In this document: positions 14,304-64,000 of the stretch, piece by piece
How positions within the stretch are numbered: position 1 is the first letter of the stretch
Layout of the letters: each line of letters begins with the position of its first letter
Translations under genes and position numbers: made by a program
The notes under the pieces: generated by a model
What the model saw: the letters and a program-made list of their open reading frames with translations, nothing else
Told to the model about the DNA's origin: nothing
Databases searched by the model: none
Assembly (NCBI GenBank): GCA_964524845.1
Contig: CAZGFX010000003.1
Span: 31,051-95,050, forward strand
DNA: 64,000 nt
Direction of reading: 5' to 3'
Source: an uncultured Gammaproteobacteria bacterium
GTDB lineage: Bacteria > Patescibacteriota > Patescibacteriia > CAZGFX01

Positions 14304-14320
14304 TTTTTTCAAATAAAAAA

Positions 14321-15545: not shown

Positions 15546-15568
15546 CAAAAAACCACCGCTAACGGTGG
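15541..15568 (-). terminator. Intrinsic terminator of the 23S-5S unit
   Basis: ccaccgttagcggtgg hairpin followed by tttttttgttt on the minus strand, immediately after the 5S gene. Confidence 0.7.
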
Positions 15569-15580: not shown

Positions 15581-15716
15581 GAAGACAAGGTATTGGCGAT
15601 TACCTACTCTCCCAGGTCATAAGACCTAGTACCATCGGCCCGCAAGGACTTAACTGCCGGGTTCGGAATGTGACCGGGTGTACCCCCTCTGGAAGTATCA
15701 CCAATACTCTGTCTTC
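15581..15716 (-). rRNA. rrf: 5S rRNA
   Basis: Helix I pairing gaagacagagtattggtga / tcgccaataccttgtcttc, and an internal CCGAACCCGGCAGTTAAG loop-B/C region. Ends are approximate. Confidence 0.8.
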
Positions 15717-15819
15717 TATAATTTTTGTGATGAATAAAAATGAAATATCACAAACGCATTTTTCGCACGCATACTGAAAAAGAAAGAATGAATCGTATTA
15801 TATACTCATATATATGTGC

Positions 15820-18905
<3,086 letters not shown>

Positions 18906-19071
18906 ACATATACGAGTAGATACTTACTCACTTCTTTACTTTTACTAATTTGTATGCGCGCGAAAATTACGTTTGTAATTTTCGCACGTTTATTCAACTG
19001 TCAACGAACCCTTATGTTGAATGACAATCAACTTTTATATATTATTCAAAAAATTCAACAAAAGCTCTCAT

Positions 19072-19100
19072 ATGATAGAGCAAAAAAAGGGCTAGGTCAA
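19072..19100 (-). promoter_or_regulatory. Promoter of the 23S-5S unit (TTGACC-17-TATCAT)
   Basis: Read on the minus strand about 160 nt upstream of the mature 23S 5' end. Confidence 0.45.
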
Positions 19101-19470
19101 GTGTATAAACCTCACATGTTGTTCACAGGATACATATTAATAAATAGCTTTGTTGACAGTCTTTTTTTAATTTTTTAATTTTAATCATAATAAAAAACAT
19201 AATAAAAACAAAAAACCCGCTCCATTAAGCGTGTTTTAAACAAATAATCTTTTTACTATTTTTTTTATTATCGGCCCCCCACTGTGCCTTACGGTATATT
19301 ATTCTTGAAAAATTGTCAAGTAGGTGGTGTCAATAACTTGTTTATAACTATTTTTTGTCGTTTTTTCAAGGTTTTTATTGGTTTTTTAGTGTTGACTTTT
19401 TACCGAAAATAAGATATTATTTAATGAAAAAACAAAATAAATTAAAAACAAAAAAATACGGGGGTACGCG

Positions 19471-20097
19471 ATGTACGAAATAATTGTCGTCTGCTCGAGC
19501 GCACTATTCTTTGCATCTGCTATAGATTATGTACGATGCGCATGGACCGAAAAAACAAAACCGGTTCCAGCAACATGGATACTTATGATGACAACTATGA
19601 GCTTGTCGTTCTGGATGTATTGGAATAGCCCGAACAAATCATGGACTGGAAACATTGGAGTTACAGCAGGATTAATGGCAAATTTTATAATTTTCAGTGG
19701 AGTTATTTTAAAGCACATTAAAAACAACACTCTTCATATCATGTTTGATACAGTACAAAAATGTTGTCTAGCCGGAGGATTTAGCACTGTAATTGTTTGG
19801 ATCATCACGAAAGATCCTTTGTTGTCATATGTTCTTGTACAAGGTATTGCTGTTATAGGGTATTTTGCGACAATAAAAAGATTATGGAGGGCACCATCAA
19901 GCACAGAACCGATGTTTTTGTGGATTGCAGTTGTATTTGCAAACTTACTTGCATTATATCCTGCATTCATAAAAGATGATGTATTTTCTTGGATATATCT
20001 TTCTCGTACAATACCATCAAGTATATTCATGGTATATCTCATAAAAAAAATAAATCGTCGTTCCATACAAAATAATTTTTCTTCAGAGTTGTCGTAA
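19471..20097 (+). CDS. Hypothetical six-helix membrane protein (tandem paralogue A)
   Basis: 208 aa, hydrophobic throughout. No family could be assigned with confidence. Confidence 0.55.
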   Translation: MYEIIVVCSSALFFASAIDYVRCAWTEKTKPVPATWILMMTTMSLSFWMYWNSPNKSWTGNIGVTAGLMANFIIFSGVILKHIKNNTLHIMFDTVQKCCLAGGFSTVIVWIITKDPLLSYVLVQGIAVIGYFATIKRLWRAPSSTEPMFLWIAVVFANLLALYPAFIKDDVFSWIYLSRTIPSSIFMVYLIKKINRRSIQNNFSSELS

Positions 20098-20179
20098 TAA
20101 AAGATTACGACACCTTTATAAGAAAAATAAACTAAAAACAAAAAAACACTCACCTATTTTTAGGTGAAAAGGAGGATTC

Positions 20180-20776
20180 ATGATTAGTCTCATATCAGGA
20201 ATTATTGTCTGCGCAAGTATAATTCCTTATGTAATCCGCACATATCAGAAAAAAATTGAGCCAAACATCGTATCGTGGTCGATATGGTCGATAATCGGAA
20301 TATCTTTGTTATTAAATTCTATCGCTGCAAAAACATTTGAAAATAATCCGTGGCCACTTGTTTTTAACACGATAAATCCAACTATAATTGCAATCATGGT
20401 CGCGATCAGATGGCATCGCGAACCATTATATCTGTATGAAAAAATATCCGGTATTATTGGAATCATTTCAATTGTGTTGTGGTTCATATTTCAAAACAAT
20501 CCATCACTTGCTGTTTTTTCACTAATACTGGCACTTGTTGCTGATATAGCGGCTGGTATCCCTACTTTTTTGTTTGTTATTAAAAAACCAGATAAAGAAC
20601 GTCCTTTCGTTTGGTTTATATTCGGAGTAGGATATGGTCTTTCTATATTTATACTTGGAAACGATTGGGTTGAATATCTTGTTCCGGGATATATGACACT
20701 TGCCGGAATTGCAATATCAATTCCTCCTATCATCTACAGAATAAAAAACTCAATCCCATTAAAAGAATGGGTTTGA
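20180..20776 (+). CDS. Hypothetical six-helix membrane protein (tandem paralogue B)
   Basis: 198 aa with similar topology. GGAGG RBS. Confidence 0.6.
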   Translation: MISLISGIIVCASIIPYVIRTYQKKIEPNIVSWSIWSIIGISLLLNSIAAKTFENNPWPLVFNTINPTIIAIMVAIRWHREPLYLYEKISGIIGIISIVLWFIFQNNPSLAVFSLILALVADIAAGIPTFLFVIKKPDKERPFVWFIFGVGYGLSIFILGNDWVEYLVPGYMTLAGIAISIPPIIYRIKNSIPLKEWV

Positions 20777-20838
20777 AAAATTTCACAAAACAAAAAAACA
20801 CCTCGCGAAATAGCTTGGTGTTTTTTAATTAGTATAAA

Positions 20839-21192
20839 TTATTTTTTATTTATTATTTCCGTCATCCATAAAACATTACCTTCGGAATCAATAAATTTAG
20901 TTATTAAGAAACTTTTTTGTTTTTTACATCGTTCTATAATTTTTACATTTTTTGATTCAAGTATTTCTGTTGCTTTTTTTATATTACGAACAGAAAAACC
21001 AATTCCAGCATGACTTTTGTTATTATTGTTTTTTATCTTCATCAAAGCAATATTAATTCCATTTGCACACGTCAGTTCGGACCATACCTTTGTATTATAA
21101 AGCTGTTTTAAGCCTAGTATATCTCTATAAAAAACGAGTGCTTTTTCCATATTGTGTACAGGAATACAGAAATGATTAATATGTTCAAACAT
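20839..21192 (-). CDS. VOC/glyoxalase-family protein
   Basis: N-terminal HxxIPVxNMEKALxFYRDILGL pattern typical of glyoxalase/bleomycin-resistance folds. Confidence 0.6.
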   Translation of the reverse strand: MFEHINHFCIPVHNMEKALVFYRDILGLKQLYNTKVWSELTCANGINIALMKIKNNNNKSHAGIGFSVRNIKKATEILESKNVKIIERCKKQKSFLITKFIDSEGNVLWMTEIINKK

Positions 21193-21257
21193 AATATTTT
21201 TAAATTATTACTTATATCTATATTTTATCATAAACCACAAAAAAACAATTGTTTTCT

Positions 21258-21340
21258 TCTCGTAATTCGTAATTCGTAATTCGTAATTATTATTTCTTCT
21301 CGTAATTCTCTCCTCTCGTAATTCGTAATTCGTAATTTCC
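21258..21340. repeat. Family-C CGTAATT(CG) microsatellite array
   Basis: cgtaattcgtaattcgtaattcgtaatt ... ctcgtaattcgtaattcgtaatt. Same motif as at 10536-10600. Confidence 0.8.
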
Positions 21341-22113
21341 TATTTGCTTCCCTTCACCACGACCTTCGTTCCAACATCGGCCCACGCATAGAGTTTTTCT
21401 ATTTCTCCATCTGGAACACGAACACAGCCATTTGTGCGCGGTTCTCCAACAATATTAATACCCAAAACACCGGTTGGCTTGATTGTTCTTCCGTGAATTC
21501 CATATTTTCCATTTGAAAAATCCATCCACCATGGCATCCATACTTTTCCGACTCGCGACCACGCTTTCGTAATCTTGTTGCGAACGGAGAATTCTCCCTT
21601 TGGTGTTTTCTGATCCGGTTTCCCTGTTGATACATAAAAAGAACCAACTTCTATATCACTGAGAAAATAAGTGAGTGTTTGTTTATCTGTATTTATAATA
21701 ATTTGTTTTTCGAGTTTTATTTCACCTTTGATTCGCGGATCGTATCCATTATCAATTTCTGTCTTATCATAATGTCCGTCGCCATCCGTATCCCGATTAA
21801 TCATTGATAATTTGTTTTTGAGTTCCATCGCATCCGAAAGCCCGTCACCATCAAAATCAGTTTCATCAAGACGCTTTCCGGCGCTATGTGGACTGTATCC
21901 ACTGGCAATTTCCACATTATCATCATATCCGTCACAATCCGTGTCTTTCTGATTCGGATTCGTTCCATAAACAGTTAACTCTATTTGATCGGATATCGTA
22001 TCGCCATCAGAATCTATTGAAACAACATCTTCTTGAGCAAAACAAAACACAGGTAATATACACAACAACCCGCATACAAATAAATTTTTAATCAAGAATT
22101 GGACCAACTTCAT
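21340..22113 (-). CDS. Secreted L,D-transpeptidase (YkuD domain) with thrombospondin type-3-like Ca-binding repeats
   Basis: Signal peptide. DxDxDG-type repeats (DSDGDTISD, DTDCDGYDD, DFDGDGLSD, DTDGDGHYD). C-terminal ...HGT...TNGCVRV catalytic Cys motif. Confidence 0.75.
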   Translation of the reverse strand: MKLVQFLIKNLFVCGLLCILPVFCFAQEDVVSIDSDGDTISDQIELTVYGTNPNQKDTDCDGYDDNVEIASGYSPHSAGKRLDETDFDGDGLSDAMELKNKLSMINRDTDGDGHYDKTEIDNGYDPRIKGEIKLEKQIIINTDKQTLTYFLSDIEVGSFYVSTGKPDQKTPKGEFSVRNKITKAWSRVGKVWMPWWMDFSNGKYGIHGRTIKPTGVLGINIVGEPRTNGCVRVPDGEIEKLYAWADVGTKVVVKGSK

Positions 22114-23113
22114 ATCGTTCTAATGTTCGAGGAGAAATGTTTTTAATCGGACCGGATTGATATTTTTTAAGCACCTCCGGCGAAGGAATGTATCGTAAAA
22201 CATCTTTTTCTATCATATATATTCGCTTTGTCTCCGTGTTACGAACAAGCATACCGCTTTGTATGGATCGTTCGTTAACGATAGGATTATATCCACTTGC
22301 AATCTCAGCACCATCCGAATATCCATCGTTATCCGTATCTGCAACAAATAAGTTTGTTTTGTGTTTCAGCTCTTCTTTTTTTGTTAAACCATCCTTATCG
22401 CCATCTGTATCTACGGATTTCGAAAGTTTGTTTGTTGTAAACAGCACAACCGGACTTCCTGTCTTTGTCTTTTTCGGATGCACATAATTACGAAGAGAAT
22501 TCATAATCACAGTGTATGAATATACATAATTCTTACCGCGGCGCGTGCCAGGTTCCTGTGTAATAAACTCCTGTTTTGTGTCATCATATCCTGAAATGAC
22601 GAACACATGATAATCCGGTCCTCCGTTTCGAAAGTTTGGGTTTTTGAGATCCTTGCCATGCGCTAGCGCTATAACTGGTCGACCTTCGTCAATTTCTTTT
22701 TTTATATCATCAAGCGTAGGCTTTTCTTTTATAATCGTCTCGAAAGAGAAAAAATTGCTTGCGAGCATATCTATATCTTTTGCATCGGTATCCTCATAAT
22801 ATCCTAGAACATTTTTTTGTATATCAACAATTGAAAGAATATCACGCGCCGCCGTATCCACATCAAGTGCGTTCCCAGTATAAAAATGTTCCACCATGAC
22901 AAGAGTCGCCTCCTCACACGCCTCATGCCATGGGGCTGACCAGTCTCCTTTTGGCGCTTGTACAGTAAAAGGAACCGGTAGGTTTTTCGGCTTGGAAATG
23001 ACTTTTTCTTTTTGTTCAGATGGCTTTGTTGGAATAACTACATTGGTCGCCTTCGTATAGTTTCCATACAAAAAAAACACAGGAAAAACAATAATGAAAA
23101 CAAGATATTTCAT
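22088..23113 (-). CDS. Secreted C39-like (papain-fold) peptidase-domain protein with TSP3-like repeats
   Basis: WHEACEEA Cys and DYHVFVISGYDD His in the expected order. DTDGDKDG and DTDNDGYSDG repeats. Overlaps the downstream LDT gene by 26 bp. Confidence 0.55.
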   Translation of the reverse strand: MKYLVFIIVFPVFFLYGNYTKATNVVIPTKPSEQKEKVISKPKNLPVPFTVQAPKGDWSAPWHEACEEATLVMVEHFYTGNALDVDTAARDILSIVDIQKNVLGYYEDTDAKDIDMLASNFFSFETIIKEKPTLDDIKKEIDEGRPVIALAHGKDLKNPNFRNGGPDYHVFVISGYDDTKQEFITQEPGTRRGKNYVYSYTVIMNSLRNYVHPKKTKTGSPVVLFTTNKLSKSVDTDGDKDGLTKKEELKHKTNLFVADTDNDGYSDGAEIASGYNPIVNERSIQSGMLVRNTETKRIYMIEKDVLRYIPSPEVLKKYQSGPIKNISPRTLERYEVGPILD

Positions 23114-23191
23114 ACACTAAGTATATCAAAACATTAGAAAACAAAAAAGGAACACACAACACAATGTATTCCTTAAAATATTGTTTTGTAA

Positions 23192-23734
23192 TTATTGTAT
23201 CTGAAGAGTTTCTAACATCTTCATATGCGCATCATCAGATGCATCGAAATAAATTTCGTAATTATAATTTGATCCAATAACCAAATAAATATCAAGTTTG
23301 TTCTCCGTTCCTCCTGCAGTACCCAAAAACTGATATGCGACATGTCCTGCTATTGTTGTTTTCTTCTCGCTCAAAATTTTGGAAATAACAGATCCATCTT
23401 CCTGTTTTCCTTGAGATTCATAATATTTTTTGTAATCATCGAGTTTCATATGGTGCGCATATATCATAAGCGGTCTATGCTGTCCCTCAAATCCTTCAAA
23501 AAAGAAAAATATACGGTCTTTTCCATTGCTTTCTGAAACTCGTGAACCACACTTGTTAATTGAAAACTTAAAATCAGCGCTCGTATACAACTGATCACTC
23601 GTGCATGAAACTTTTTTCAAACTCTCATCAATAGGTTTTGGATCGGTGTTCGTATCAACTGGTTTATCCGTATTAAAAAGAGAGCACGACGCAAGAAACA
23701 CGGAAAGAAACGAGAATAAAAATATTTTTTTCAT
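23192..23734 (-). CDS. Hypothetical lipoprotein
   Basis: Start reset to MKKIFLFSFLSVFLASC, which has a lipobox. A TTGCAA-17-TATTAT promoter lies upstream. Confidence 0.55.
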   Translation of the reverse strand: MKKIFLFSFLSVFLASCSLFNTDKPVDTNTDPKPIDESLKKVSCTSDQLYTSADFKFSINKCGSRVSESNGKDRIFFFFEGFEGQHRPLMIYAHHMKLDDYKKYYESQGKQEDGSVISKILSEKKTTIAGHVAYQFLGTAGGTENKLDIYLVIGSNYNYEIYFDASDDAHMKMLETLQIQ

Positions 23735-23785
23735 ATGATTATAATGATAATACGAAAAAAACACCTTTTTTGCAAATAAAAAACA

Positions 23786-23818
23786 ACTCTTAAAAACTGA
23801 GTTGTGTTTACATAACAA
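23786..23818 (-). terminator. Intrinsic terminator ending the 16S/tRNA-Ile transcription unit
   Basis: acaactc...gagttgt hairpin followed by ttttttattt on the minus strand. Confidence 0.5.
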
Positions 23819-23916
23819 AATGAAAAACAAAAGATAGTCTGCCATCCGTAGCGCGAAGAGTGAATTGGTGGATTTCAGTGGCCCCGCCACGAGTGAGAAG
23901 CGAAGCGACGAACGAG

Positions 23917-23993
23917 TGGTGGGCGTACCAAGAATCGAACTTGGGACCTCAACATTATCAGTGTTGCGCTCTAACCAGCTGAGCTATACGCCC
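23917..23993 (-). tRNA. tRNA-Ile (GAT)
   Basis: GGGCGTATAGCTCAGCTGGTTAGAGC...CTGATAA anticodon loop...GGTTCGATTC...CCA. Confidence 0.9.
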
Positions 23994-24170
23994 GTGAAAA
24001 ATATTTTATAAGTCTAATACTATATACTATTTGATTAAACATCAATAGTTTGGTAACCCGCCCTGCAGACGAACGAAGTGAGTCGTGCAGGGAGCTATAC
24101 GCCCGTGAAAAATATATTCTAAATAAATAGTATTGAACCTTGAAAAAAACATCAATGGCTTGGTAACCCG
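23978..24170. repeat. Tandem roughly 115-bp duplication in the 16S/tRNA-Ile spacer, including a 24-bp copy of the tRNA-Ile 5' end
   Basis: gagctatacgcccgtgaaaaatat occurs at 23978 and 24093. catcaatNGNttggtaacccg occurs at 24050 and 24150. The hairpin ccctgcagacgaacgaagtgagtcgtgcaggg lies between them. Confidence 0.8.
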
Positions 24171-24624
24171 AATATTACAAAATACTGCTCAATGATAATA
24201 TATTTTTTTATCTTTTTCAATACTATGGACTTTGAACTGTTTTATATTACTTGAAATATTTGAGACAAACGCGTTTTTAATAAAAAACGACACCTTCCAT
24301 AAAGAAAGATACCGTTCACGTATAGTGTTATTATTATATCTAATTTTATACTTTTGTCGAGATTATTTTGATTTTATAATCTCCATATACAACCAATAAA
24401 ACATTTTTAGAAACAAAAAACGCCAGATTTCGATAATTCACAAGCAAAAAATTAAAAACTCATACAAAATAAAAAATGTTAGATTTCGCAAAATCTAACA
24501 TTTTTTTAACAACAGAATATAATAACCAGACTACTGTCCCACTTCCGATCATCCGTCTGTACAGAGCGGACAATCTCGACCTGCTTCGTAAAAGCAAGTT
24601 TGCTTTCACACCATATATCCCTAG

Positions 24625-26122
<1,498 letters not shown>

Positions 26123-26275
26123 CAAAACATCTGCCGCGAAAAAAATCGCGAAAGATATCAAATTTTGGTTTATAAAGGAATTGGGACCGTAATATCTCAA
26201 ACCAAGATATTGACGGTCTGGTTATTATATTCTGCTGTCAACGTACCAAATTGACCTCTTACGAAGTCGTGTGTG

Positions 26276-38384: not shown

Positions 38385-38530
38385 ACACTCGCTTCGCTCA
38401 ACCCCCGCAAAGCGGGATCCCGTCTTGCGGGAATTGTCACCTCGAACAAAGTAGCCTGTCCCGACGAATGTCGGGAAGAAGTCTTCTTGCTCCATGACTT
38501 TTGACTTTTGACACATTCGCTTCGCTCAGT
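38385..38530. repeat. Family-B element bounded by CGCTTCGCTCA direct repeats
   Basis: cactcgcttcgctcaacccccgcaaagcgggatcccgtcttgcgggaattgtcacctcgaac...cattcgcttcgctcag. It shares about 40 nt almost exactly with 59990-60040. Confidence 0.8.
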
Positions 38531-38556: not shown

Positions 38557-39309
38557 TTATAACCACCCTTTCTTAACAAGTCCTTTGCGAGCGGCTTCGA
38601 CTTGTGCGTCTTGCTTGCTCGATCCCTCTCCTTCGGCAAGTAGTTCATCGGCTAAATATATTCCTACAATAAAATGTTTTTTGTGATCTGGACCTGTTTC
38701 AGAAAGCACCTTATAAGAAGGTGTTACACCAATTTTGTCTTGTGCCGCCTCTTGAAATAAACTTTTTGGATCAAGATACGATTTTTCTTCAAGAATATTC
38801 GAGAGATGTACAAGTATATGCATTTTTATGAATTCCTGACACGGACGATATCCCTGGTCGAGATACAATCCACCTATAATCGCTTCCATCGCATCAGCCA
38901 TAATATATTGACGAGCTTTTGAATTTGAATCCTTGGCCTCGCCTTTACTGAGATACAGATGTGGTTCCACATCTAGTTTTGTCGCAACCTCCGCGAGCAT
39001 GTTTGCATTAACAAGTGCGGCTCTCCAGTTTGTAAGTTCTCCTTCCGAATTCGGATAATTATGATAAAGATATTCGGTAATAACGAGTTCGAGTACGGCA
39101 TCACCTAAAAATTCGAGACGCTCATTGTGGTTGAGTTCGAATCCTGGGTGCTCATTAATATATGAGCGATGCACAAGTGCTTGGCGCAATAAATCTTTGT
39201 TTTTGAAAACAACTTTTAAGTTATTCTCTAGTAATATAATATCTTGCATACATGTGGTTGCATTAATGTTTTCTACTGATCTTTTCTTCTTTTTGTTTCG
39301 CATTTTCAT
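38557..39309 (-). CDS. rnc: Ribonuclease III
   Basis: ERLEFLGDAVL signature plus a dsRBD-like C-terminus. The true start may be the internal Met at 39249. Confidence 0.85.
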   Translation of the reverse strand: MKMRNKKKKRSVENINATTCMQDIILLENNLKVVFKNKDLLRQALVHRSYINEHPGFELNHNERLEFLGDAVLELVITEYLYHNYPNSEGELTNWRAALVNANMLAEVATKLDVEPHLYLSKGEAKDSNSKARQYIMADAMEAIIGGLYLDQGYRPCQEFIKMHILVHLSNILEEKSYLDPKSLFQEAAQDKIGVTPSYKVLSETGPDHKKHFIVGIYLADELLAEGEGSSKQDAQVEAARKGLVKKGWL

Positions 39310-40198
39310 CCGCAGGGTGTGTTTCTACTTTGAACCCAAGTCTTCTTAGACCATCGCGAAAAATATCTTTTGTATTTTCATATCCCAAAAGTCCAAGTGC
39401 CGCACCGGCATCAAACCAACGCGCATCCTGTAATTCTGGCTCTTTTGGAATTGTGAGTTTTACATCTGTTGCCTCAATGAGATAATAATGGACTGTTTTT
39501 GGTATTGGGGCTTTGTTCGGTTCATTAACAATAATCGAAATTGTTCCCAATTTTTCACGTACAACGAGGTTTTTCAAACCAACCTCTTCACCTATTTCGC
39601 GTTGAGCCGCATCTTCCAAGTCTTCGCCCTCGTTCATTTTTCCCTTCGGAAACGTCCATCGTCCTATCGCGTCTTTAATGAGCACAAATTTATATCCATC
39701 TGAATCTTTGTGATAAACCATTCCTCCTGCAGAAATCTGTCTCTCTCCTCCGTCCGAAAGTATTTTACGTATTTCGATTCCACCTTTTGTTTCTATATTT
39801 TTCAAAAGAGATCCCAAAACACCGTTCACAAATTTACTCGATGAAGGTGAACCAAATGTTTTCGCTAGTTCGATCGCTTCATTAATCGCAACTTTTGGTG
39901 GAATATCGTGAACATAGCGCAACTCATATACACCAATACGAAGTACGTTTCGATCTACGTTTGATATATGATCGATTGGCCACGCCGGTGCATACTGTGC
40001 AATTAAAGAATCAATTTCTACACGGTGCTCCAAAACTCCTTTGAGAAGGTTTTTAATAAATCCATTATCCCGATATCCGACCGCAAATTCACGAACATTG
40101 CGATCAAGAAGTATCTGGGCATCTACTTCAAAATTATTAAAATCACACTCAAACAAAGTTTGAAGAACCAAAGAACGAGCAAGGTGCCTATTTGACAT
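39263..40198 (-). CDS. NusB-like N-terminal domain fused to a C-terminal Nudix hydrolase domain
   Basis: N-terminus SLVLQTLFECDF...NAIELAKTFG is NusB-like. C-terminus GKMNEGEDLEDAAQREIGEEVGL is a Nudix box (GX5EX7REUXEEXGU). Confidence 0.7.
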   Translation of the reverse strand: MSNRHLARSLVLQTLFECDFNNFEVDAQILLDRNVREFAVGYRDNGFIKNLLKGVLEHRVEIDSLIAQYAPAWPIDHISNVDRNVLRIGVYELRYVHDIPPKVAINEAIELAKTFGSPSSSKFVNGVLGSLLKNIETKGGIEIRKILSDGGERQISAGGMVYHKDSDGYKFVLIKDAIGRWTFPKGKMNEGEDLEDAAQREIGEEVGLKNLVVREKLGTISIIVNEPNKAPIPKTVHYYLIEATDVKLTIPKEPELQDARWFDAGAALGLLGYENTKDIFRDGLRRLGFKVETHPADENAKQKEEKISRKH

Positions 40199-40293
40199 AT
40201 GTGCAAAGAATGAACAATTATTTAATTTTAAAGCTTTTAAAAAGCATTAATGAACAAACAGAAAATAATCGTACAAAAATATGAACGATTTAT

Positions 40294-40491
40294 TTACTTG
40301 TTGGTATTGAGATTCGCTTTGACGTTTACCTTAACGTCTTTTTTGTAGTATCCGCACGCAGAACACGCATGATGAGGTAGTGTTGATGTTCCGCATTGCG
40401 AACATATGTTAACGGAAACAGTTTCAAGCGCATGATGACCTCGACGAGCTCGAGTTCTTCGTTTTGAATATCGTTTTGACGGAAGACCCAT
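40294..40491 (-). CDS. rpmF: 50S ribosomal protein L32
   Basis: Basic N-terminus and a CxxC...CxxC zinc ribbon (CSQCG...CSACGYY). Confidence 0.75.
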   Translation of the reverse strand: MGLPSKRYSKRRTRARRGHHALETVSVNICSQCGTSTLPHHACSACGYYKKDVKVNVKANLNTNK

Positions 40492-40845
40492 ATACTAAGA
40501 TCATTACTGATTAATCTGATGCTATGTGTATATTTTTATATAAAAACACACATCTGCACCGCAACTATATACGTTATTTCGGTCTTTGTAAAGCCTAAAA
40601 AACGCCAAAGTGTTTGAAAAAATATGTTTTTTTATAAAATCATATTAAAAGTGCATAAACTATGGACAAAGTGTGGATAATATGTGATTATAATTAAATT
40701 AAAATAAACAGTTATTTGGCTAAGGTAAGACGATAAATCGTATTTTTCTTATTTTTAACATCTTCTTTGAAATTGACATTTTCTTTTTATGATGCTAACA
40801 TAAACATGCTCGTTAAAAAGGAATTCTGATACGTGCTTTTATATG

Positions 40846-41057
40846 TGTGTTGACGACAAGCATGGAAGTTTTTCTCTAAGTACATCCGGCTCAGGCTTGA
40901 TGTCGCTAGAGAAAAGTTTTCTTCAACACACATATGAGTGCGTGTTTCATAAGTAAAGCAGCTTAGGAAGTGTGTTGACGACAAGCATGGAAGTTTTTCT
41001 CTAAGTACATCCGGCTCAGGCTTGATGTCGCTAGAGAAAAGTTTTCTTCAACACACC
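40846..41057. repeat. Two 86-bp palindromic MITE-like copies (TIR GTGTGTTGA...TCAACACAC) separated by 38 bp
   Basis: 40846-40931 and 40970-41055 are near-identical. Each is a long imperfect hairpin with 9-bp terminal inverted repeats. Confidence 0.85.
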
Positions 41058-41085
41058 TCCCAGGCTGTTTTTTTGTTTTACAATA

Positions 41086-41402
41086 AATTGAAGCGAGCCG
41101 AAGTGCTCGCATCAAATTGGATGAGACATCTTCCTGACATCCGTCAGGACAGGCGCTTTCGTGCTCGATGTGACAAGCTCCATAAAGCGATAGCGTGCGG
41201 GGTATGTAGAGATATTTTTGGATGAAAAGGATAAGCGACTTGTTCGAGAGAACATAAAAATATAAATCATGAAGCGAGCCGAAGTGCTCGCATCAAATTG
41301 GATGAGACATTTTCCTGACATCCGTCAGGACAGGCGCTTTCGTGCTCGATGCGACAATGTTGGTCGAGGTGACAAGTTCCGCAAAGCGATAGCGTGCGGG
41401 GT
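41086..41402. repeat. Two roughly 120-bp direct repeats (gaagcgagccgaagtgctcgcatcaaattggatgagaca...gcgatagcgtgcgggg)
   Basis: Copies at 41086-41205 and 41270-41402. The second carries a 21-nt insertion resembling family B (gtcgaggtgacaag). Confidence 0.85.
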
Positions 41403-41410
41403 GTTAATAT

Positions 41411-41575
41411 TGTCATGCTGAACCTTTAGTCCTGAGTTCATCTCAGGATCTGCGCCCTTTCAGCATCTACCGTGTAATTTTTAACTACATTGTCATGCTG
41501 AACCTTTAGTCCTGAGTTCATCTCAGGATCTGCGCCCTTTCAGCATCTGCTGTGTGACTTTTGATAATATGAGTA
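41411..41575. repeat. Two tandem family-A palindromic elements
   Basis: Copies at 41411-41490 and 41491-41575. They match 15195-15275 at about 90% identity. Confidence 0.85.
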
Positions 41576-41812
41576 GATCCTGAAACAGGTACATAGATCC
41601 TGAAAGGAATACATAGATCCTGAAATAAATTCAGGATGACAAGGTCAGTTCAGAATGACACAGGCACATTGTATCAAGGAAGATTCTGAAACGAGTTCAG
41701 AATGACACAGGCACATTGTATCAAGGAAGATTCTGAAACAGATATATAGATCCTGAAAGGAATACACAGATCCTGAAATAAATTCAGGATGACATTGTTC
41801 AGGATGGTGGTG
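41575..41812. repeat. GATCCTGAAA 20-mer arrays flanking two 45-bp tandem copies (gttcagaatgacacaggcacattgtatcaaggaagattctgaaac)
   Basis: 20-mers at 41581-41640 and 41746-41800. 45-mers at 41648-41692 and 41695-41739. Confidence 0.85.
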
Positions 41813-41816
41813 CAAA

Positions 41817-43703
41817 TTACTGTGACAAAGCACCCGAAGAATCATTGGTATTTGATAACCCTGGGTTGTTGTTCTCTCCATTTTCATCAACAGATATCAC
41901 ATCTGTAGAAACAGTTGGTGCATTTGGATCTTTTCCTCTCATGCATATCGCGGGCCATGCTTTATAATTACTGAAAAAGGTTTCTTTTTCTTCGTGTCCA
42001 TCAGAATATTTTACAACATAATCAAAAGATGCCTTGACTCCTTTATGAGCCCTCTCTGTACACTTCTCTTCTCCAAATTTTAACTCATCTGTTTCCACAT
42101 ATTGAACTGGGCCTGGGTCAGTCCACCCCCATACAGACGGTGTTGTTCTATATGCTGTTCGCCCATCTTTTGTTCCCCAAAAATCAAAAAATACATTTGT
42201 TCCCTCAACACGTCCACTTATTAATATATAATTACCTGTATCATTTAAAAATCTTAAATCTGGTTTCGGATAATATATTGTGGCATCAACCCCCGGAAGC
42301 CCATCTTCGAGATAATAAGTAACATTATACGAGTGGTTTCTTCGCTCAAGAATTTTGAGTCCTGATGAAAGCGCGGCTCGAAAAACAGTTGTTCCAATCT
42401 GACATAGTCCACCACCATATTCTTTCTGTGTTTTATTTCCTTTTATAACCAACTCTGGTAAATATCCTTGTTCCGCAGTCGTACTACCAAGAAGCGCTAT
42501 AAGAGAAAACTCCTCGTTCGGAGCAAGAAGTGTTCCATCAACCGTATGAACACCTATTTTTATATTATGAATACGATTTGCTGGTGATCCTGCAAAATTT
42601 GATTCACCAGTTCCAACAACCTCTGTAATACCTAATGTATTAACATCTTTGGTGTGTATTTTTGGCAAAGCCTCTTTCACAATAAGTGAAACTGAATTTG
42701 TACGAGTATTAAACAAGGACTCTGTGATCGACTCAACTAAGTTGTCCATATCAATTTCTCGTCCGTTTCTTGAAGGAATAAACTCCTTAACCTTATTATC
42801 TTTTATTTCAAGTTTGGCATCCTGTGGAGCACGCTCAATTACAGAACGCATTTCTTTAATAGATTCGTATAACTTTTCTTTCGATATGTTTAGAGCCGGT
42901 TTTTTTGTTTCTTCATTAAAAGACAGAACTATCCATTTGATATATTCTTTATAAAAGAACTTCCATTTTTGCTTCTCATATATTAAAGAAATTGCTGGGA
43001 GTACTGATTTTAGTTCATCAAAAACAGTTAGAAGCGGGGACGCATCGCTTTCAGAAAAACGAGGATCAGTATTTTTTTTGATCAAGTTGATCGGTGTTAT
43101 TGAAAAAGAAGAAACCATTGAACGAGTGTCTATTAAAGCCGCGTCCAGATCAAACTCGATTCCTTTTTGAGCCCGTGTTATTTCATATGAACCGTCTTCG
43201 TGCCACAAGAGTTCAGGCTCTGTTCCTTTTTGAACAAGTGTTTCGAGACTTTCTTCCATTGTCATGCGCCACAAACTATCATTAATTGAATATATAAAAT
43301 TTGTTTTAATCGGAAAAATCATATGATTTAGACGTTCCCACATGGTGCCTGTTCTACCTGTTTCATATGCAAGAAGAACTGTTTTTTGAATATCAACATC
43401 AACAATTTCCTGAGCAAGCGCTGGATCGTCTGTTAATATTCTTGATGGAATGTTTATAGGAGAATGCCCGTCAATTAAATATGTAAATCCTTTTGCAAGT
43501 GCTTCTTCTGTTTTTTCAGTCAAAAGTCTTTCCGCAGTCTCACTGCTCAAGCCACCAACGGCATATCCATCGACCGAAACATTTGGAAATATACGTCCTT
43601 CATACTGATATATATATAGGAAAACAACTAGAGATACAACAACAAGACACCCACACATTATAATGAGAGCATCGATAAAATATCTGACAAGTCGTTGAAT
43701 CAT
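41817..43703 (-). CDS. VanW-domain protein with an N-terminal membrane anchor
   Basis: ...EYGGGLCQIGTTVFRAALSSGLKILERRNHSY... matches the VanW conserved core. Confidence 0.7.
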   Translation of the reverse strand: MIQRLVRYFIDALIIMCGCLVVVSLVVFLYIYQYEGRIFPNVSVDGYAVGGLSSETAERLLTEKTEEALAKGFTYLIDGHSPINIPSRILTDDPALAQEIVDVDIQKTVLLAYETGRTGTMWERLNHMIFPIKTNFIYSINDSLWRMTMEESLETLVQKGTEPELLWHEDGSYEITRAQKGIEFDLDAALIDTRSMVSSFSITPINLIKKNTDPRFSESDASPLLTVFDELKSVLPAISLIYEKQKWKFFYKEYIKWIVLSFNEETKKPALNISKEKLYESIKEMRSVIERAPQDAKLEIKDNKVKEFIPSRNGREIDMDNLVESITESLFNTRTNSVSLIVKEALPKIHTKDVNTLGITEVVGTGESNFAGSPANRIHNIKIGVHTVDGTLLAPNEEFSLIALLGSTTAEQGYLPELVIKGNKTQKEYGGGLCQIGTTVFRAALSSGLKILERRNHSYNVTYYLEDGLPGVDATIYYPKPDLRFLNDTGNYILISGRVEGTNVFFDFWGTKDGRTAYRTTPSVWGWTDPGPVQYVETDELKFGEEKCTERAHKGVKASFDYVVKYSDGHEEKETFFSNYKAWPAICMRGKDPNAPTVSTDVISVDENGENNNPGLSNTNDSSGALSQ

Positions 43704-44544: not shown

Positions 44545-44620
44545 TGGTGCTGAGAGCGGGAGTTGAACCCGCGACACAAGGATTTTCAGTCCTTTGCTCT
44601 ACCAACTGAGCTATCTCAGC
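44545..44620 (-). tRNA. tRNA-Phe (GAA), embedded between 19-bp perfect inverted repeats
   Basis: GCTGAGATAGCTCAGTTGGTAGAGC...CTGAAAA anticodon loop...CCA. The flanks taacaccttatttctggtg and caccagaaataaggtgtt are exact reverse complements. Confidence 0.9.
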
Positions 44621-55117: not shown

Positions 55118-55262
55118 ACACTGAACGAAGCGAACGCAGTAAGGATGAGACCTCTTCCTTCGGTCGAGGTGACAGTGTTGAGCGAAGCGAACGTAGTAAG
55201 GATGAGACCTCTCCCTTTGGTCGAGGTGACAATGTTGAGCGTAGCGAATGTGCCAAAAAAAA
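55118..55262. repeat. Family-B element: about 2.3 tandem 57-60-bp units
   Basis: AGCGAAGCGAACGYAGTAAGGATGAGACCTCTYCCTTYGGTCGAGGTGACARTGTTG repeated. It is the reverse complement of the 60070-60130 region. Confidence 0.85.
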
Positions 55263-59841: not shown

Positions 59842-59924
59842 GCCGCGGTGGTGAAATTGGTATACACGCATGCCTTAGGAGCATGTGCGAAAGCATGAGA
59901 GTTCGAGTCTCTCCCGCGGCACCA
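59842..59924 (+). tRNA. tRNA-Leu (TAG), class II with long variable arm
   Basis: GCCGCGG acceptor, CTTAGGA anticodon loop, variable arm TGCGAAAGCATG, GGTTCGAGTC T-loop, CCGCGGC-A-CCA. Confidence 0.85.
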
Positions 59925-60170
59925 TTCGATCGTCGCTCCGTTCCTCACTCATGGCAGAGCCACCAGAATTCATCGCTTTGCTCAACTCCCGCGAAGTGGG
60001 ATCCTACCTTGCGGGAATTGTCACCTCAGCCAACTTTGTCACATCGACCCACTTTGTCACCTCGACCAACATTGTCACCTCGAACGAATGTGAGAGGTCT
60101 CCCCCTCCGTATCACCTTGCCACATCTCGCTCGCACGAAAAAACTAAATTTTTCGTTCGAACGAGACGTT
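59925..60170. repeat. Family-B element immediately downstream of tRNA-Leu
   Basis: cgcgaagtgggatcctaccttgcgggaattgtcacctc, then iterated ttgtcacMtcgaNc motifs, then gtgagaggtctcc. The ORFs 59793..60208 and 59885..60208 inside it are spurious. Confidence 0.85.
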
Positions 60171-60218
60171 GCATAAACGGCGCACATTATCTGAAATTTT
60201 ATTTTTAATTTTAATAAC

Positions 60219-60617
60219 ATGGAAACAAACAAATTGCCACGCAACATAATTTTGGCTAGTATTTTATTAATAGCACTATCAATCAGCTATTATTATTTGA
60301 TTTTTCTGCCTCAAAAAGAAAATACTAGAATTAAAACCAACTGTATTGATAAGGTGCTTAAAGAAATGAAAGACGCTCATCCCAAAATGCAAACCGATGA
60401 GATTACTAATTTTAGAATTGCTAACGATAGAGGTTGCTTTATAGAGGCAGGTTGTATGCAAGGAGTACAAGATGCTAATTTCAAACCTAAATTTAGTGAA
60501 TGCAATAATGATTATTATAATTCTTGTTTATCTAATATAAAAAACCAGGCAGAAGAAATGATTCAGGCAGAAAAATCAAAAAGGATTAATGAATGCATTG
60601 ATCTTTATTCAAATTAA
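60219..60617 (+). CDS. Small secreted or anchored Cys-containing protein (AT-rich islet)
   Basis: N-terminal hydrophobic anchor and several Cys residues. The sequence is noticeably AT-richer than backbone genes. Confidence 0.5.
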   Translation: METNKLPRNIILASILLIALSISYYYLIFLPQKENTRIKTNCIDKVLKEMKDAHPKMQTDEITNFRIANDRGCFIEAGCMQGVQDANFKPKFSECNNDYYNSCLSNIKNQAEEMIQAEKSKRINECIDLYSN

Positions 60618-60806
60618 AATTAAAAGTAAAACATCATATAACACCAAATATACGACTATTCTTTTAAAAATATCTTAAATTTATTTTTCATTAATTATAG
60701 AGGGGTATAAGGTGTTTTCTCCGCGGAGTTTACCCCGCAACCAATGCGGGGCTACGAAAACGATTTATTTATAAGGGGAAAACAATTATAATAATTATAA
60801 CCAACC

Positions 60807-61925
60807 ATGAAAATTGCTATGAATAAAAAGAGTAAAAAGACAAAAAAATTAAACGTCGCTACGGTTTTTAGTGGTATCGGTGCTTTTGAACATGCGCTAG
60901 AAAGAATGAAAATTGAACATGAAATAATATTTGCTTGTGATAATGATGAACAATGTAAAAAAACATATTTTGCAAATTATAAGATACTGGAAGACAATTG
61001 GTATAATGATATTTTTTCTTTAAATGGTAAGAAATATAAAAATTGCGTAGACATTTTAATAGGAGGAAGTCCATGCCAATCATTTTCTATGGTTGGCAAA
61101 AGAAAAGGGCTAAAAGATGACAGGGGTAATTTAATATTTGAATATATTAAATTAATCAAAGACGTTGAACCAAATGTTTTTATTTTTGAAAATGTAAAAG
61201 GTTTATTAAATCATGAGCAAGGGAAAACATGGACATTTATTGAAAAATCATTTAAAAAGTTGGGGTATGTTGTTAAACATCAAGTTCTAAATGCAAAAAA
61301 TTATGGCATACCGCAAAACAGAGAAAGAGTATTTCTAGTTGGATTTAAAAACAAAAAAGTAAATTTTGAATTTCCAAATCCAGTTAAACTTGAAATTACA
61401 ATGCAGGATTTATTAGAAGATAATCTAGATTCTAAATATTATTTAGGGAATAAGGGCATAAGTTTTGTCACGAAACAAAAAAACCTAGATAAAAGATATA
61501 CACAAATTAATGGCAATATTGCGCTTTGCCAAAAAGCTAATCAACAATTTAATTGGCATGGGGATTTTATTCTAGAAAAAGCAAAAAAGGACGTTGAAAA
61601 TAAATACTATTTATCGGAGAAAGTTAAAGATTATGTTTTAAAAACCGGTACAAAAAATTTTTATTCAAAACCAAAAACAGATTTACCAGTAGCAAGACCA
61701 TTGTTACAAAGTATGCATAAGATGCATAGAGCTGGAGTTGACAATTACATAACCAAGGGTGAAAAAATAAGAAAGCTTACACCAAGAGAGTGTCACAGAT
61801 TAATGGGTTTTTCAGATAATTTTAAAATAGTTGTTAGCGACACGCAGGCTTATAGACAGGCTGGCAATAGTATCGTTGTCCCAGTTATTATTGAGGTATT
61901 AAAAAAAATATTATTACATTTATAA
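60807..61925 (+). CDS. DNA (cytosine-5)-methyltransferase
   Basis: Motif I FSGIGAF, motif IV GGSPCQSFS, motif VI ENVKGL, motif VIII QVLNAKNYGIPQNRERVF, motif X QAGNSIVVPV. Confidence 0.9.
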   Translation: MKIAMNKKSKKTKKLNVATVFSGIGAFEHALERMKIEHEIIFACDNDEQCKKTYFANYKILEDNWYNDIFSLNGKKYKNCVDILIGGSPCQSFSMVGKRKGLKDDRGNLIFEYIKLIKDVEPNVFIFENVKGLLNHEQGKTWTFIEKSFKKLGYVVKHQVLNAKNYGIPQNRERVFLVGFKNKKVNFEFPNPVKLEITMQDLLEDNLDSKYYLGNKGISFVTKQKNLDKRYTQINGNIALCQKANQQFNWHGDFILEKAKKDVENKYYLSEKVKDYVLKTGTKNFYSKPKTDLPVARPLLQSMHKMHRAGVDNYITKGEKIRKLTPRECHRLMGFSDNFKIVVSDTQAYRQAGNSIVVPVIIEVLKKILLHL

Positions 61926-61931
61926 TAATTT

Positions 61932-62903
61932 ATGAAATTACAAATACTAGGTAAAAATTACAAAGTACTTGATGCAAAAGAAAAAATAACAATAGCAGAT
62001 TCTTTTGTTGTAAGACAAAATAAAATAGGAACAGGAAACGGTGAAGCTAAGCTTTATGTTGGCAACGACAATGAAGAAGTGCGAAATTTTTTTGGCAGTA
62101 GCGGTTTTGCAGTCGACTGTTTCTTGTTAAAAAAAGACCTAATAAAATATTTAGAAGAAACTAAAGTTGAATATTTAAATCCAGAGCAACCCTATATCAA
62201 TAAAAGCAGTCTCCCTGAGTTATGGAAAACAAGAAAAGACAAAGTAAATTCATTGCCTGAAATTATAGAATTTACTGTTATAGAGCAAACTCAAATTGCG
62301 GGACCAAGGATATATATAAATTCTTCAGATGAAGCATATTCCTTGATAAGAGAATTATCTTTACCTAATGTAACATATATTTCAGTGATCAAACTTACAA
62401 ATGAAGACAATAAACTGTTTTATTATTTCCGTTTATTCGCAGACTATTTTGGTGAGGTAGAACATCCATTTTTAATTAAAAAAGAAAGTGATGAAATAAA
62501 AGATGCACAACTAGACATTGTTGAAAAAACACAATTATACAAGGCGAGGGTAGGGCAAGGAGAATATCGAAAAAAATTATTAGAACTTTGCCCATTTTGT
62601 CCAATTACTTTGGTTTCTGATGATAGGCTACTTATTGCAAGCCACATTAAACCATGGGCTTCTTCAAATAATTTTGAAAAAACAGATCCAATGAATGGTT
62701 TTATGCTTACTCCAACTTTTGATTTTCTTTTTGATAGAGGTTTTCTTTCTTTCACTGATGATAAAAAAACAATTTTATCGCCATTTCTTTCTAATATGAC
62801 ATATTCAAAAATTGGAATTTCTAATAATAAGTTAATACTTCATCTGAAAACAGAAGGACGTGAGAAGTACCTAGAATATCATAGAAAAAACATTTTTAAA
62901 TAA
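61932..62903 (+). CDS. HNH (His-Me finger) nuclease-domain protein; candidate Type II restriction endonuclease partner
   Basis: RVGQGEYRKKLLELCPFCPIT...LLIASHIKPWASS...NGFMLTPTFDFLFDRG is an HNH core with a CxxC zinc ligand pair. The start lies 7 nt after the MTase stop. Confidence 0.65.
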   Translation: MKLQILGKNYKVLDAKEKITIADSFVVRQNKIGTGNGEAKLYVGNDNEEVRNFFGSSGFAVDCFLLKKDLIKYLEETKVEYLNPEQPYINKSSLPELWKTRKDKVNSLPEIIEFTVIEQTQIAGPRIYINSSDEAYSLIRELSLPNVTYISVIKLTNEDNKLFYYFRLFADYFGEVEHPFLIKKESDEIKDAQLDIVEKTQLYKARVGQGEYRKKLLELCPFCPITLVSDDRLLIASHIKPWASSNNFEKTDPMNGFMLTPTFDFLFDRGFLSFTDDKKTILSPFLSNMTYSKIGISNNKLILHLKTEGREKYLEYHRKNIFK

Positions 62904-62905
62904 GG

Positions 62906-62975
62906 AGTTTTGGGCTTCGGGCATTCACCCCTTTAATTCCCCTCTGTCCTTCGCCCAAAACGAAAAAAGAAATTT
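62906..62975 (+). terminator. Long stem-loop (gttttgggc...gcccaaaac) after the nuclease gene
   Basis: Directly read inverted repeat followed by an A/T-rich stretch. Whether it terminates transcription is uncertain. Confidence 0.35.
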
Positions 62976-63083
62976 TAAAATTTTTAAAACAATTCCGACT
63001 GCTGTCGGAAAAAAGAAAAGGAATACATCAGCTAACACGGCATATCTAGTTACTGCTTTTATACAAAAGCCTCCGCCCATATT

Positions 63084-63725
63084 TTGTTCCGCTACGCTCC
63101 ACAAAACATCAGATATGCCAAAACGTTAGATGAAATTTTATTTTTTATGGATTATAATGATGTCCAAGCACGTCTAAAAAATATTTACTCGTCCATAGAC
63201 GAGCAATATTCTTATGGTCATGAGGCTCTTGGTATGGCTCATTGGGAACAAACTGACAATCAAATTAGCTTTTCCTTTCTTAATCCAAACAATAAACCAA
63301 GGGTTATAAATCAAATAAACAATGTCATTTCAAACCTTGCCAACATAAAAGATTGCCTAAAGAAAAAACTTCAAGACAGAGGCGACGATCCTCAAGCTAT
63401 TGAGTACGAAATTAACGACTCATTGTACTTGCAGTTGGTTCTCGATTTATCTAACCAAGAAAAGCACGGCTACCCGCTTACAAAAACTAGTCGATCTCAA
63501 AAAAACCCACTCATTAAAAACGTTAACCGAGGACTTTCACGCTCGAACAGACTAGACAATATTAGATATGAACAAAGCGACGGTTCTGTAATAGTTAATA
63601 TGATGATCATTATAACCGCAGACGTAACAGACTCTCAGGACAATCTTTTGTGTCGGCTTGATGAATTAGTAGAAAACGCTCTTAAGTTTTGGGAGAATAC
63701 TATAAAAAAATATAACATCGACTAA
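63084..63725 (+). CDS. Hypothetical protein (AT-rich islet)
   Basis: 213-aa ORF. A start at the internal Met MDYND is also possible. Confidence 0.45.
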   Translation: MFRYAPQNIRYAKTLDEILFFMDYNDVQARLKNIYSSIDEQYSYGHEALGMAHWEQTDNQISFSFLNPNNKPRVINQINNVISNLANIKDCLKKKLQDRGDDPQAIEYEINDSLYLQLVLDLSNQEKHGYPLTKTSRSQKNPLIKNVNRGLSRSNRLDNIRYEQSDGSVIVNMMIIITADVTDSQDNLLCRLDELVENALKFWENTIKKYNID

Positions 63726-63773
63726 CAAGGAATATCCGATTCGCGACCTAAATTAAATTATTTAAAATATTCT

Positions 63774-63989
63774 ATGAAAAAAACATTTATTACAATAGTA
63801 ATTATACTGATATTAATTATAATTTATCAATCACTACAAATTATTCGTTTAGAAAACTATCATTATGCTGTTCAAGTTGGTTTGTGTTCAGACATGGACG
63901 ATTTCATTAAAAAGGATGATTGTTTAAATAATACAAAAACCAGAACAAACCCTATCTATAATTTGCTGTATGGGCTTAAGATATTTTAA
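63774..63989 (+). CDS. Small hypothetical membrane protein
   Basis: 71 aa with one N-terminal TM helix. It lies at the window edge. Confidence 0.4.
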   Translation: MKKTFITIVIILILIIIYQSLQIIRLENYHYAVQVGLCSDMDDFIKKDDCLNNTKTRTNPIYNLLYGLKIF

Positions 63990-64000
63990 AAATAATTCAA

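Follow-up and report, generated by a model that had tools for sequence, protein, structure and literature searches.

A mosaic array of REP-like tagged hairpins between rpmF and a VanW-domain gene in a Patescibacteria genome

Here, we describe a non-coding repeat array of ~970 nucleotides (nt) at positions 40845-41816 of a 64-kb stretch of DNA from a Patescibacteria genome (hereafter, the window). The array lies between rpmF (40294-40491, minus strand) and a gene for a VanW-domain protein (41817-43703, minus strand). It is composed of five pairs of direct repeats, D1-D5, and the complete hairpins in D2-D5 share one signature with hairpins at other loci of the window. These repeats are of a known kind, i.e. 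they are similar to repetitive extragenic palindromic (REP) sequences and to the NTS/dRS3 repeats of Neisseria. We consider it probable that the array is a mosaic, organized as in BIMEs and NIMEs, of tagged hairpins resembling NTS and the Ssn-related motifs (SRM), that these hairpins mostly belong to the CGTC/TGTC-tagged REP superfamily, and that a nuclease of the Ssn type is part of the underlying mechanism.

All repeat classes named in a preliminary description of this region are present, with coordinates corrected by a base or two. The units are the following:

40845-40931, plus strand: D1a, a long hairpin of 87 nt with 9-nt inverted ends GTGTGTTGA/TCAACACAC, 100% identical to D1b
40970-41056, plus strand: D1b, the second 87-nt copy, ends GTGTGTTGA/TCAACACAC, 100% identical to D1a
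41086-41205, minus strand (the strand reading GTC-A...T-C): D2a, a unit of ~120 nt
41267-41404, minus strand: D2b, the second D2 copy, with a degraded tag (GCGACA)
41409-41568, plus strand: D3a and D3b, a tandem pair of 80-nt units, 95% identical over the pair at 41409-41562
41575-41641, minus strand: D4a, 67 nt, three AGATCCTGAA half-sites (a 20-nt array) and then one complete hairpin
41647-41739, minus strand: D5, a tandem pair of 47-nt units, 100% identical
41728-41816, minus strand: D4b, 94% identical to D4a, with a complete hairpin at 41768-41793
Examples of these hairpins on the tag strand: TTGTCATTCTGAACTCGTTTCAGAATCTTCC; TTGTCACCTCGACCGAAGGAAGAGGTCTCATCC

Some hairpins lie within the loops of others. 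In D2a, a GCGAGC/GCTCGC hairpin (41093-41110) is accompanied by a short-stem tagged hairpin, GAGA-CATC...GATG-TGACA (41123-41175), which holds a CCTGAC/GTCAGG hairpin in its loop and the stem of which covaries with the copies at 55149, 60074, 15515 and 38436. The two D2 copies are 98% identical over 41089-41176 versus 41270-41357 and 88% identical over 41162-41203 versus 41361-41402. The preliminary description had correctly recognized two direct repeats of ~120 bp with an interruption in the second; the insert, however, is not a 21-mer but an orphan half-site of 18 nt, TGTTGGTCGAGGTGACAA (41358-41375), and the 23-mer at 41353-41375 that overlaps it is 100% identical to 60054-60076. Each D3 unit reads TGTC-ATGCTGAA-(36-nt loop with a second hairpin)-TTCAGCAT-C-T, and D3 followed by inverted D4 forms a doublet with the ends TTGTCATGCTGAAC...GTTCAGGATGACA, i.e. 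a composite with 14-bp inverted ends. The 20-nt arrays at 41574-41630 and 41728-41783 lie inside the D4 pair. On the tag strand, the complete hairpin of D4a (41615-41640) reads TGTC-ATCCTGAA-TTTAT-TTCAGGAT-C-T, and a scan flagged D4a as terminator-like on the minus strand; the complete hairpin of D4b is also terminator-like, lies 24 nt beyond the VanW stop codon (41817) and is followed by an orphan GTTCAGGAT half-site at 41798-41806. The minimal complete hairpin of D5 (41681-41706; tag strand TGTC-ATTCTGAA-CTCGT-TTCAGAAT-C-T) straddles the junction of the two tandem units. Array growth is best read as recent local duplication together with insertion of units and half-units, the duplication being recent because two pairs, D1 and D5, are still identical.

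In D2-D5 and at the other loci, every complete hairpin reads on one strand as (T)GTC, followed by a stem whose first base is A and whose last base is T, and then by C-T. These hairpins fall into two classes. The long-stem class follows the pattern TGTC-AT(G/C/T)CTGAA-loop-TTCAG(C/G/A)AT-C-T, which is present in 9/9 complete long-stem hairpins of the window; the stems ATGCTGAA, ATCCTGAA and ATTCTGAA, of 8 bp each and with A and T as the first two bases, belong to this class only. The short-stem class reads GTC-A-NN-TC...GA-N'N'-T-C with a stem of only A+4 bp (ACCTC, ATCTC, ACATC). Minimal units have 5-nt loops (CTCGT at 15277-15302 and 41681-41706, TTTAT at 41615-41640 and 41768-41793), while in the D3 and D2 units the loops measure 36-40 nt and contain further hairpins. 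The 3' tail is C-T-N in nearly all copies, with CCA only at 15515-15539. In 23/23 short-stem hairpins, taken from the window and from two metagenomic contigs described below (L020 and L046), the flanks (G)A...TGAC are invariant (alignment columns G9, A10, T55, G56, A57 and C58; on the tag strand, GTC-A...T-C). In the same 23 hairpins, for the selection of which a pairing filter was used, six complementary combinations occur at the two variable positions of the stem (CC/GG, TT/AA, TA/TA, CA/TG, CT/AG and TC/GA). The motif AGA+stem>=5+TGAC, a hairpin plus its tag, gives 12 matches, 10 of which are repeat elements, compared to 2.2 in shuffled sequence, a short-stem regular expression 7 compared to 0.44 in shuffled sequence, and two core 12-mers 15 matches each, with 4.4 and 6.3 expected by chance.

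The tagged-hairpin families are found at six intergenic loci, i.e. in the array and at five other loci, with ~21 tagged arms in total; all copy counts given here cover the 64-kb window. The five other loci are the following:

15186-15548, no strand: array downstream of the 5S rRNA gene, collinear with the D3-D4 composite and with extra short-stem hairpins at 15464-15492 and 15509-15547
10426-10506, minus strand: solo D3-family copy between ftsK and a rodZ-like gene
38389-38530, plus strand: between rnc and smc, a tagged hairpin of the short-stem class that holds a nested one, together with GAGCGAAGCGA modules
55122-55250, minus strand: 57-nt tandem array of 2.2 copies with the minimal short-stem hairpin GGATGAGACCTCTYCC...GGTCGAGGTGACA
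59930-60110, plus strand: array right behind tRNA-Leu, composed of one complete hairpin of the short-stem class and four orphan half-sites of 18 nt, TTGTCACCTCGACCAAC

D3 paralogues are present at 15193-15318 and at 10426-10506, and a composite of ~250 nt (D3, then inverted D4) is collinear between 15.2 kb and 41.4 kb. Relative to the flanking genes at the six loci and to the strand with negative GC skew, the elements lie in mixed orientations, which argues against a uniform cis-acting RNA role. Independent short-read contigs from the same organism match the window at 100% identity and break off at 38513, 40874 and 41768, each time within a repeat: contig L002 ends at 38513 in the element at 38389-38530, and L001 at 41768 inside D4b. 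L001 also ends at 44613 inside tRNA-Phe (44545-44620), a breakpoint that the hairpin repeats do not explain.

Two further observations concern the surroundings of the dispersed loci. Beyond tRNA-Leu (59842-64000), the hairpin array is followed by a low-GC stretch (29-32%) with a gene for a C-5 cytosine DNA methylase (60807-61925), and this region looks like an island integrated beside a tRNA gene. Moreover, arrays of the heptamer TCGTAAT occupy two intergenic spacers, 21260-21337 (11 copies) and 10530-10600; they are a separate family, unrelated to the tagged hairpins.

The gene order HSP20, DUF3006, VanW, rpmF, nusB-nudix, rnc is kept in distant relatives with ~55% amino acid identity; a search for close relatives with the VanW protein gave no match among the GTDB species genomes. 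In the comparison of synteny suggested in the preliminary description, VanW and rpmF are adjacent in the relatives, and the spacer between them is 311 nt in L007 and L008, ~400 nt in L004 and 1.9 kb in L005 and L006, where it is enlarged by a gene for a 329-amino acid (aa) HTH_38-domain protein (6397-7386). None of the VanW-rpmF spacers of L004-L008 contains the repeat motifs. Because the spacers of relatives are ~310-400 nt long and free of these motifs, the ~1 kb of repeats is a lineage-specific expansion of an insertion-tolerant spacer, and in the L005/L006 lineage the same spacer has taken a different insertion. Thus, the earlier suggestion of an insertion hotspot in which miniature repeats have piled up holds. 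The claim that the whole intergenic region consists of repeats, by contrast, applies only from 40845 onward: the part at 40492-40844 is a unique, AT-rich sequence of about the same size as the whole VanW-rpmF spacer of L007 and L008.

Evidence for a partner protein comes from Clostridia. A metagenome scan with a short-stem probe returned 45 loci, 43 of which are chance or coding matches, whereas two are real: L020, with 10 hairpin elements in 3 kb, and the Clostridia contig L046, with 7 in 6.4 kb. The 33-nt hairpin GGATGAGACCTCTCC...GGTCGAGGTGACA is ~90% identical between the window (55141-55236), L020 (432-471) and L046 (2067-2106); such conservation of a non-coding repeat between the phyla of Patescibacteria and Clostridia is unexpected. 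On L046, the elements occupy a spacer of 472 nt upstream of an aminopeptidase gene, which in a relative with an 89% identical protein is 151 nt long and empty; these hairpins are a presence/absence polymorphism. At the same position in the related Clostridia contigs L058, L059 and L060, a single-domain GIY-YIG gene of 98-100 aa is called; on L058, where it occupies 6647-6949, the same types of hairpins lie on both sides of it, including CGTC-tagged copies and arrays of orphan half-sites. The Clostridia GIY-YIG protein shares 45% identity (E 2e-25) with a gonococcal open reading frame (ORF) of 94 aa that is surrounded by 16 NTS copies within 1.5 kb and that is, by size and context, the SsnA orthologue. 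Near-identical hairpins are thus associated with an SsnA homologue in Clostridia.

The hairpin repeats of L020 (1-2825) also surround a reverse transcriptase gene (971-2116; Pfam RVT_1) with the look of a diversity-generating retroelement (DGR) by motif reading, and an ORF beside it resembles a putative Avd-like four-helix-bundle protein.

Taken together, we suggest the following model for the array. The hairpins would fold when the DNA is single-stranded during replication, repair or DNA uptake. A predicted nuclease of the Ssn type, encoded elsewhere in the genome, would bind the hairpins and nick beside them. Where hairpins are clustered, such nicks and the ensuing repair or template switching would then copy whole units, half-sites and composites, and we propose that arrays would therefore grow in spacers where insertions are harmless. 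The D4b copy just after the VanW stop codon may double as the 3'-end hairpin of the VanW mRNA. In this model, the presence of the partner nuclease in this genome, its role in the duplications, the mode of spread and the benefit to the cell are what we infer from the comparison with Neisseria and Clostridia.

Several points weigh against this model and against the assignment of the hairpins to known families. The tail is CT(N) rather than the CCA of the CGTC REPs described below, and many units have hairpin-holding loops of 12-40 nt, far beyond the 4-5 nt of the defined CGTC families. The published SRM pattern, HGTCWYN(0-2)YYVSBRHN(0-5)WNVSBRGN(0-2)RNCYNB, has 0 matches in the window, L020, L046, L054, L058 and L059, because it demands G/C at stem positions that are A/T here; it misses even the hairpins that flank the Clostridia GIY-YIG gene. 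No GIY-YIG gene was found within the 64-kb window. An exact D3-family probe had no match in the GTDB species genomes, the JGI metagenomes or the viral contigs, and an exact short-stem probe had none among the viral contigs and recovered only L020 and L046 in the JGI metagenomes. The count of covarying stem combinations derives partly from sequences selected for pairing; when the test was repeated with the 3' half alone as anchor, which corrects this selection only in part, 23/32 had a complementary 5' partner and the remainder were mostly orphan half-sites or variants. To our knowledge, the mode of spread of CGTC/NTS repeats has not been shown in any organism. Finally, the D1 pair, 174 nt of the array, is outside the signature.

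The D1 pair is not explained by the reading as tagged hairpins. D1a is the tip of a longer hairpin (40828-40945) with an outer stem of unique sequence, and D1b is the tip of a different outer hairpin (40948-41076) that runs into a T-run at 41071-41082; the fold of 40806-41085, with both copies, has a free energy of -104 kcal/mol (z = -8.25). Neither copy has a GTC...C tag or a target-site duplication, the flanks being ATAT/ATAT in one copy and GGAA/CTCC in the other, and there is no further copy within the 64-kb window. In the preliminary description, the D1 copies were 86-bp elements at 40846-40931 and 40970-41055; that they are identical hairpins with 9-bp inverted ends is correct, while their length is 87 nt with the coordinates given above. 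Judged from the folds, the D1 copies could have been inserted into palindromes that were already there, or they could belong to a small RNA of the plus strand.

We considered five other explanations for the array. In one, the repeats are REP/REPIN elements mobilized by a RAYT (a Y1 HUH transposase) with the inverted D3/D4 doublet as the mobile unit. The clustered, intergenic copies in both orientations fit this, as does the recurrence of the doublet as a composite at 15.2 kb, and when the opposite strand is read, GTAG or NNAG lies 5' of the hairpin in some copies. However, the tetranucleotide at this opposite-strand position varies (GCAG, ATAG, GAAG, TGAG) and the conserved flank is GTC/TGAC, there is no Y1_Tnp gene among the ~50 ORFs of the window, and in Clostridia the same types of hairpins flank a GIY-YIG gene rather than a RAYT gene; we therefore regard mobilization by a RAYT as doubtful. 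It is slightly less probable still that the region is a structured non-coding RNA locus as the preliminary description had proposed, in particular one encoding a plus-strand small RNA of ~265 nt that extends from the promoter-like sequence at 40773-40801 through both D1 copies to the T-run at 41071-41082. Although the fold of this segment is very stable and ends in a hairpin with a U-run, long perfect hairpins fold well as DNA too, and although the promoter-like sequence matches at 10/12 positions with an extended -10 element, the number of such sites is at the chance level (5 found, 5.4 expected). In favor of an RNA, the substitutions that distinguish D3 copies lead to G-U pairs on just one of the strands in 3/3 cases; against this stand the mixed orientations of the elements at the six loci, the lack of a homologue in the relatives and in the collections searched, and the Rfam 15 scan of 40200-42000, which gave no match at the gathering score and, in a permissive setting, only chance-level matches to miRNAs and snoRNAs (E 0.03-7).

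The D1 hairpins had also been called MITE-like, and the whole array would in that case consist of miniature inverted-repeat transposable elements (MITEs), i.e. non-autonomous remnants of insertion sequences (IS) moved by a classical DDE transposase. The 9-bp inverted ends of D1, the 14-bp inverted ends of the D3-D4 composite, and the HTH_38 (an IS30-like N-terminal domain) gene in the same spacer of one relative are in line with this. Nonetheless, the inverted ends of the composite are arms of tagged hairpins, target-site duplications are absent from both D1 copies and from the composite, no transposase or IS was found in the window, and cut-and-paste transposition does not yield tandem arrays of half-sites; we consider MITEs very unlikely. 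Even less credence is due to the idea that the tandem copy numbers are artefacts of an assembly that collapsed or expanded the repeats. Short-read assemblies fail at exactly these points and two pairs are 100% identical; by contrast, the unique junctions between families are internally consistent, pairs that have diverged (94-98%) cannot be artefactual duplicates, and the same composite is present at a second locus with different flanks. Least of all do we expect a replication origin or terminus or a segregation site, which the preliminary description had also raised. Points in its favor are a perfect DnaA-box 9-mer at 40672-40680 and a GC skew that is locally positive at 40-42 kb; yet cumulative skew falls across the whole window without a turning point, and thus without a switch at 41 kb, DnaA-like 9-mers number 19 with 19.1 expected in the window, neither dnaA nor dnaN is nearby, and the same repeats are present at five other loci. 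This explanation can practically be set aside.

A few additional candidates were rejected on inspection. Readings of GGAUGAG...UGACA as a hammerhead ribozyme, a kink-turn or a box C/D motif lack essential core bases by eye, i.e. A14 is missing from the hammerhead and GA after the 3-nt bulge from the kink-turn. D2a and D2b are not a template/variable repeat pair of a DGR: their differences are mixed rather than adenine-specific, and the window has no reverse transcriptase. A regular repeat-spacer pattern as in CRISPR is absent. Searches with D1 and other probes gave no match in viral contigs, one of the patterns being mis-specified such that it would miss even the copy in the window; blastn searches of collections of phages and plasmids gave no match, a literature search with sequence strings returned only unrelated primers, and a search of the literature on repeat elements in Patescibacteria found nothing relevant.

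The conclusion in the preliminary description that the region has no credible ORF is borne out: the small ORFs of 40492-41816 have no Pfam match. An alternative translation table, considered there as a way in which a conserved gene could have been overlooked, does not reveal one. Under codes 4 and 25, ORFs as long as 157 aa appear solely inside the repeats, and the genome uses the standard code, with TGA terminating 7/50 genes and never in frame. Outside the array, the region up to rpmF has the following features:

40492-40844 (353 nt), no strand: unique AT-rich spacer adjoining rpmF, not repetitive
40592-40564, minus strand: promoter-like site for rpmF, TTTACA-17-TATAGT
40672-40680: perfect DnaA-box 9-mer within the unique spacer
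40773-40801, plus strand: promoter-like site, 10/12 positions matched, extended -10

All three perfect DnaA-box 9-mers TTATCCACA of the window (10334-10354, 13887-13895 and 40672-40680) are in intergenic, promoter-like regions, and one of them has a second box with one mismatch 12 nt away; the total of one-mismatch boxes is as expected by chance.

The window represents a core region of the chromosome, carrying rRNA genes, recA, ftsK, smc, infB and clpP, and its assignment to Patescibacteria agrees with the best non-self match of the NusB-Nudix fusion protein, which is 55% identical and named Patescibacteria. This fusion (39263-40198) has more than 6000 protein matches at E <= 1e-20; all of the 120 matches listed share its architecture, and the named ones among them are from Patescibacteria or a plain "bacterium". 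The rRNA genes are split within 15591-26123, with 16S (24625-26123) and tRNA-Ile (23917-23993) ~5 kb from 23S (15810-18909) and 5S, and six protein ORFs in between, among them YkuD, a C39-like peptidase and a glyoxalase. At 3100 nt, the 23S match is longer than the model of 2925 nt, suggesting an insertion. At 14167-15143, three consecutive small lysine-rich ORFs (~44, 37 and 84 aa) are each preceded by a similar leader hairpin (GGATGAATAATCC or GGATCAAAACAATCC) and have their own terminator.

The array shows that a genome of the candidate phyla radiation that is supposedly streamlined tolerates dense arrays of the REP type, with ~21 tagged arms in 64 kb. Because such arrays break short-read assemblies, they help to account for the fragmented genomes of this group. 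The NTS/SRM hairpin class is extended to AT-rich variants in Patescibacteria and Clostridia that the published search pattern misses. The model predicts that this genome encodes a GIY-YIG nuclease of ~95 aa by which the hairpins are cut on the TGTC strand; if so, the system could be relevant to the way in which symbionts that scavenge DNA deal with incoming single strands. We also speculate, and consider it rather unlikely, that the lineage carries an Ssn-type single-strand nuclease together with hairpin repeats and with the same specificity as in Clostridia. In that case, 33-nt hairpins with ~90% identity across phyla and a shared specificity would imply horizontal transfer of a nuclease-plus-repeat system; the arrays might control recombination of incoming single-stranded DNA near core genes in an episymbiont that depends on uptake, and the D1 pair might be a new small RNA.

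The array shares design principles with several known repeat systems. In E. coli BIMEs and in the NIMEs of Neisseria, spacers are also filled with units 47-120 nt long, between which tagged hairpins from several families are interspersed, and array length also varies between lineages; the sequence families here are different, the nesting is deeper with hairpins in hairpin loops, and the recent duplications are perfect. With REPINs and the GTAG REPs of RAYTs, the array has in common an inverted hairpin doublet as a repeated composite unit, while the tag differs from GTAG and no RAYT turned up in the 64-kb window.

The Ssn system provides a second point of comparison. SsnA, a GIY-YIG protein of 94 aa, binds and cuts NTS of Neisseria, CGTCATTCCCGCGMAVGCGGGAATCYRG, a sequence that includes dRS3, when it is single-stranded DNA; cleavage is governed by the three bases that precede the palindrome, no base matters more for binding than the C that directly follows it, such hairpins typically flank ssnA genes, and repeat-rich genomes often belong to symbionts (Chenal et al. 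2025, PMC11893778). The invariant positions of the hairpins described here are exactly those that govern cleavage and binding of NTS by SsnA. Likewise, D5 has GTCATTC...GAATC in common with NTS, hairpins of these types flank the Clostridia homologue of SsnA, and repeat density is high in a host-dependent bacterium. Compared to the Ssn-related motifs, the stems are AT-rich and the loops longer.

The closest counterparts are the CGTC-tagged REPs. In the account by Di Nocera, De Gregorio & Rocco (2013, PMC3733652), the tag is often TGTC, with CCTC as a further variant, stems of 8-9 bp start with A,T, loops are 4-5 nt long, a short tail fits CCA, a dedicated transposase is not known, and in Neisseria the elements form clusters within extensive mosaic regions between genes. 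The hairpins described here differ from these REPs in having a second class with stems of 4-5 bp and tandem arrays of orphan half-sites, and in being hosted by Patescibacteria, a phylum not named in the parts of the account used here. Measured against the same description, they also have an unpaired 5' tag (TGTC in 9/9 complete long-stem hairpins and GTC in 23/23 short-stem hairpins), many intergenic copies in both orientations, inverted doublets and clusters, and no known dedicated transposase. With their 8-bp, A,T-starting stems and 5-nt loops, the minimal units of the long-stem class have every feature given there for the CGTC REPs except for the tail.

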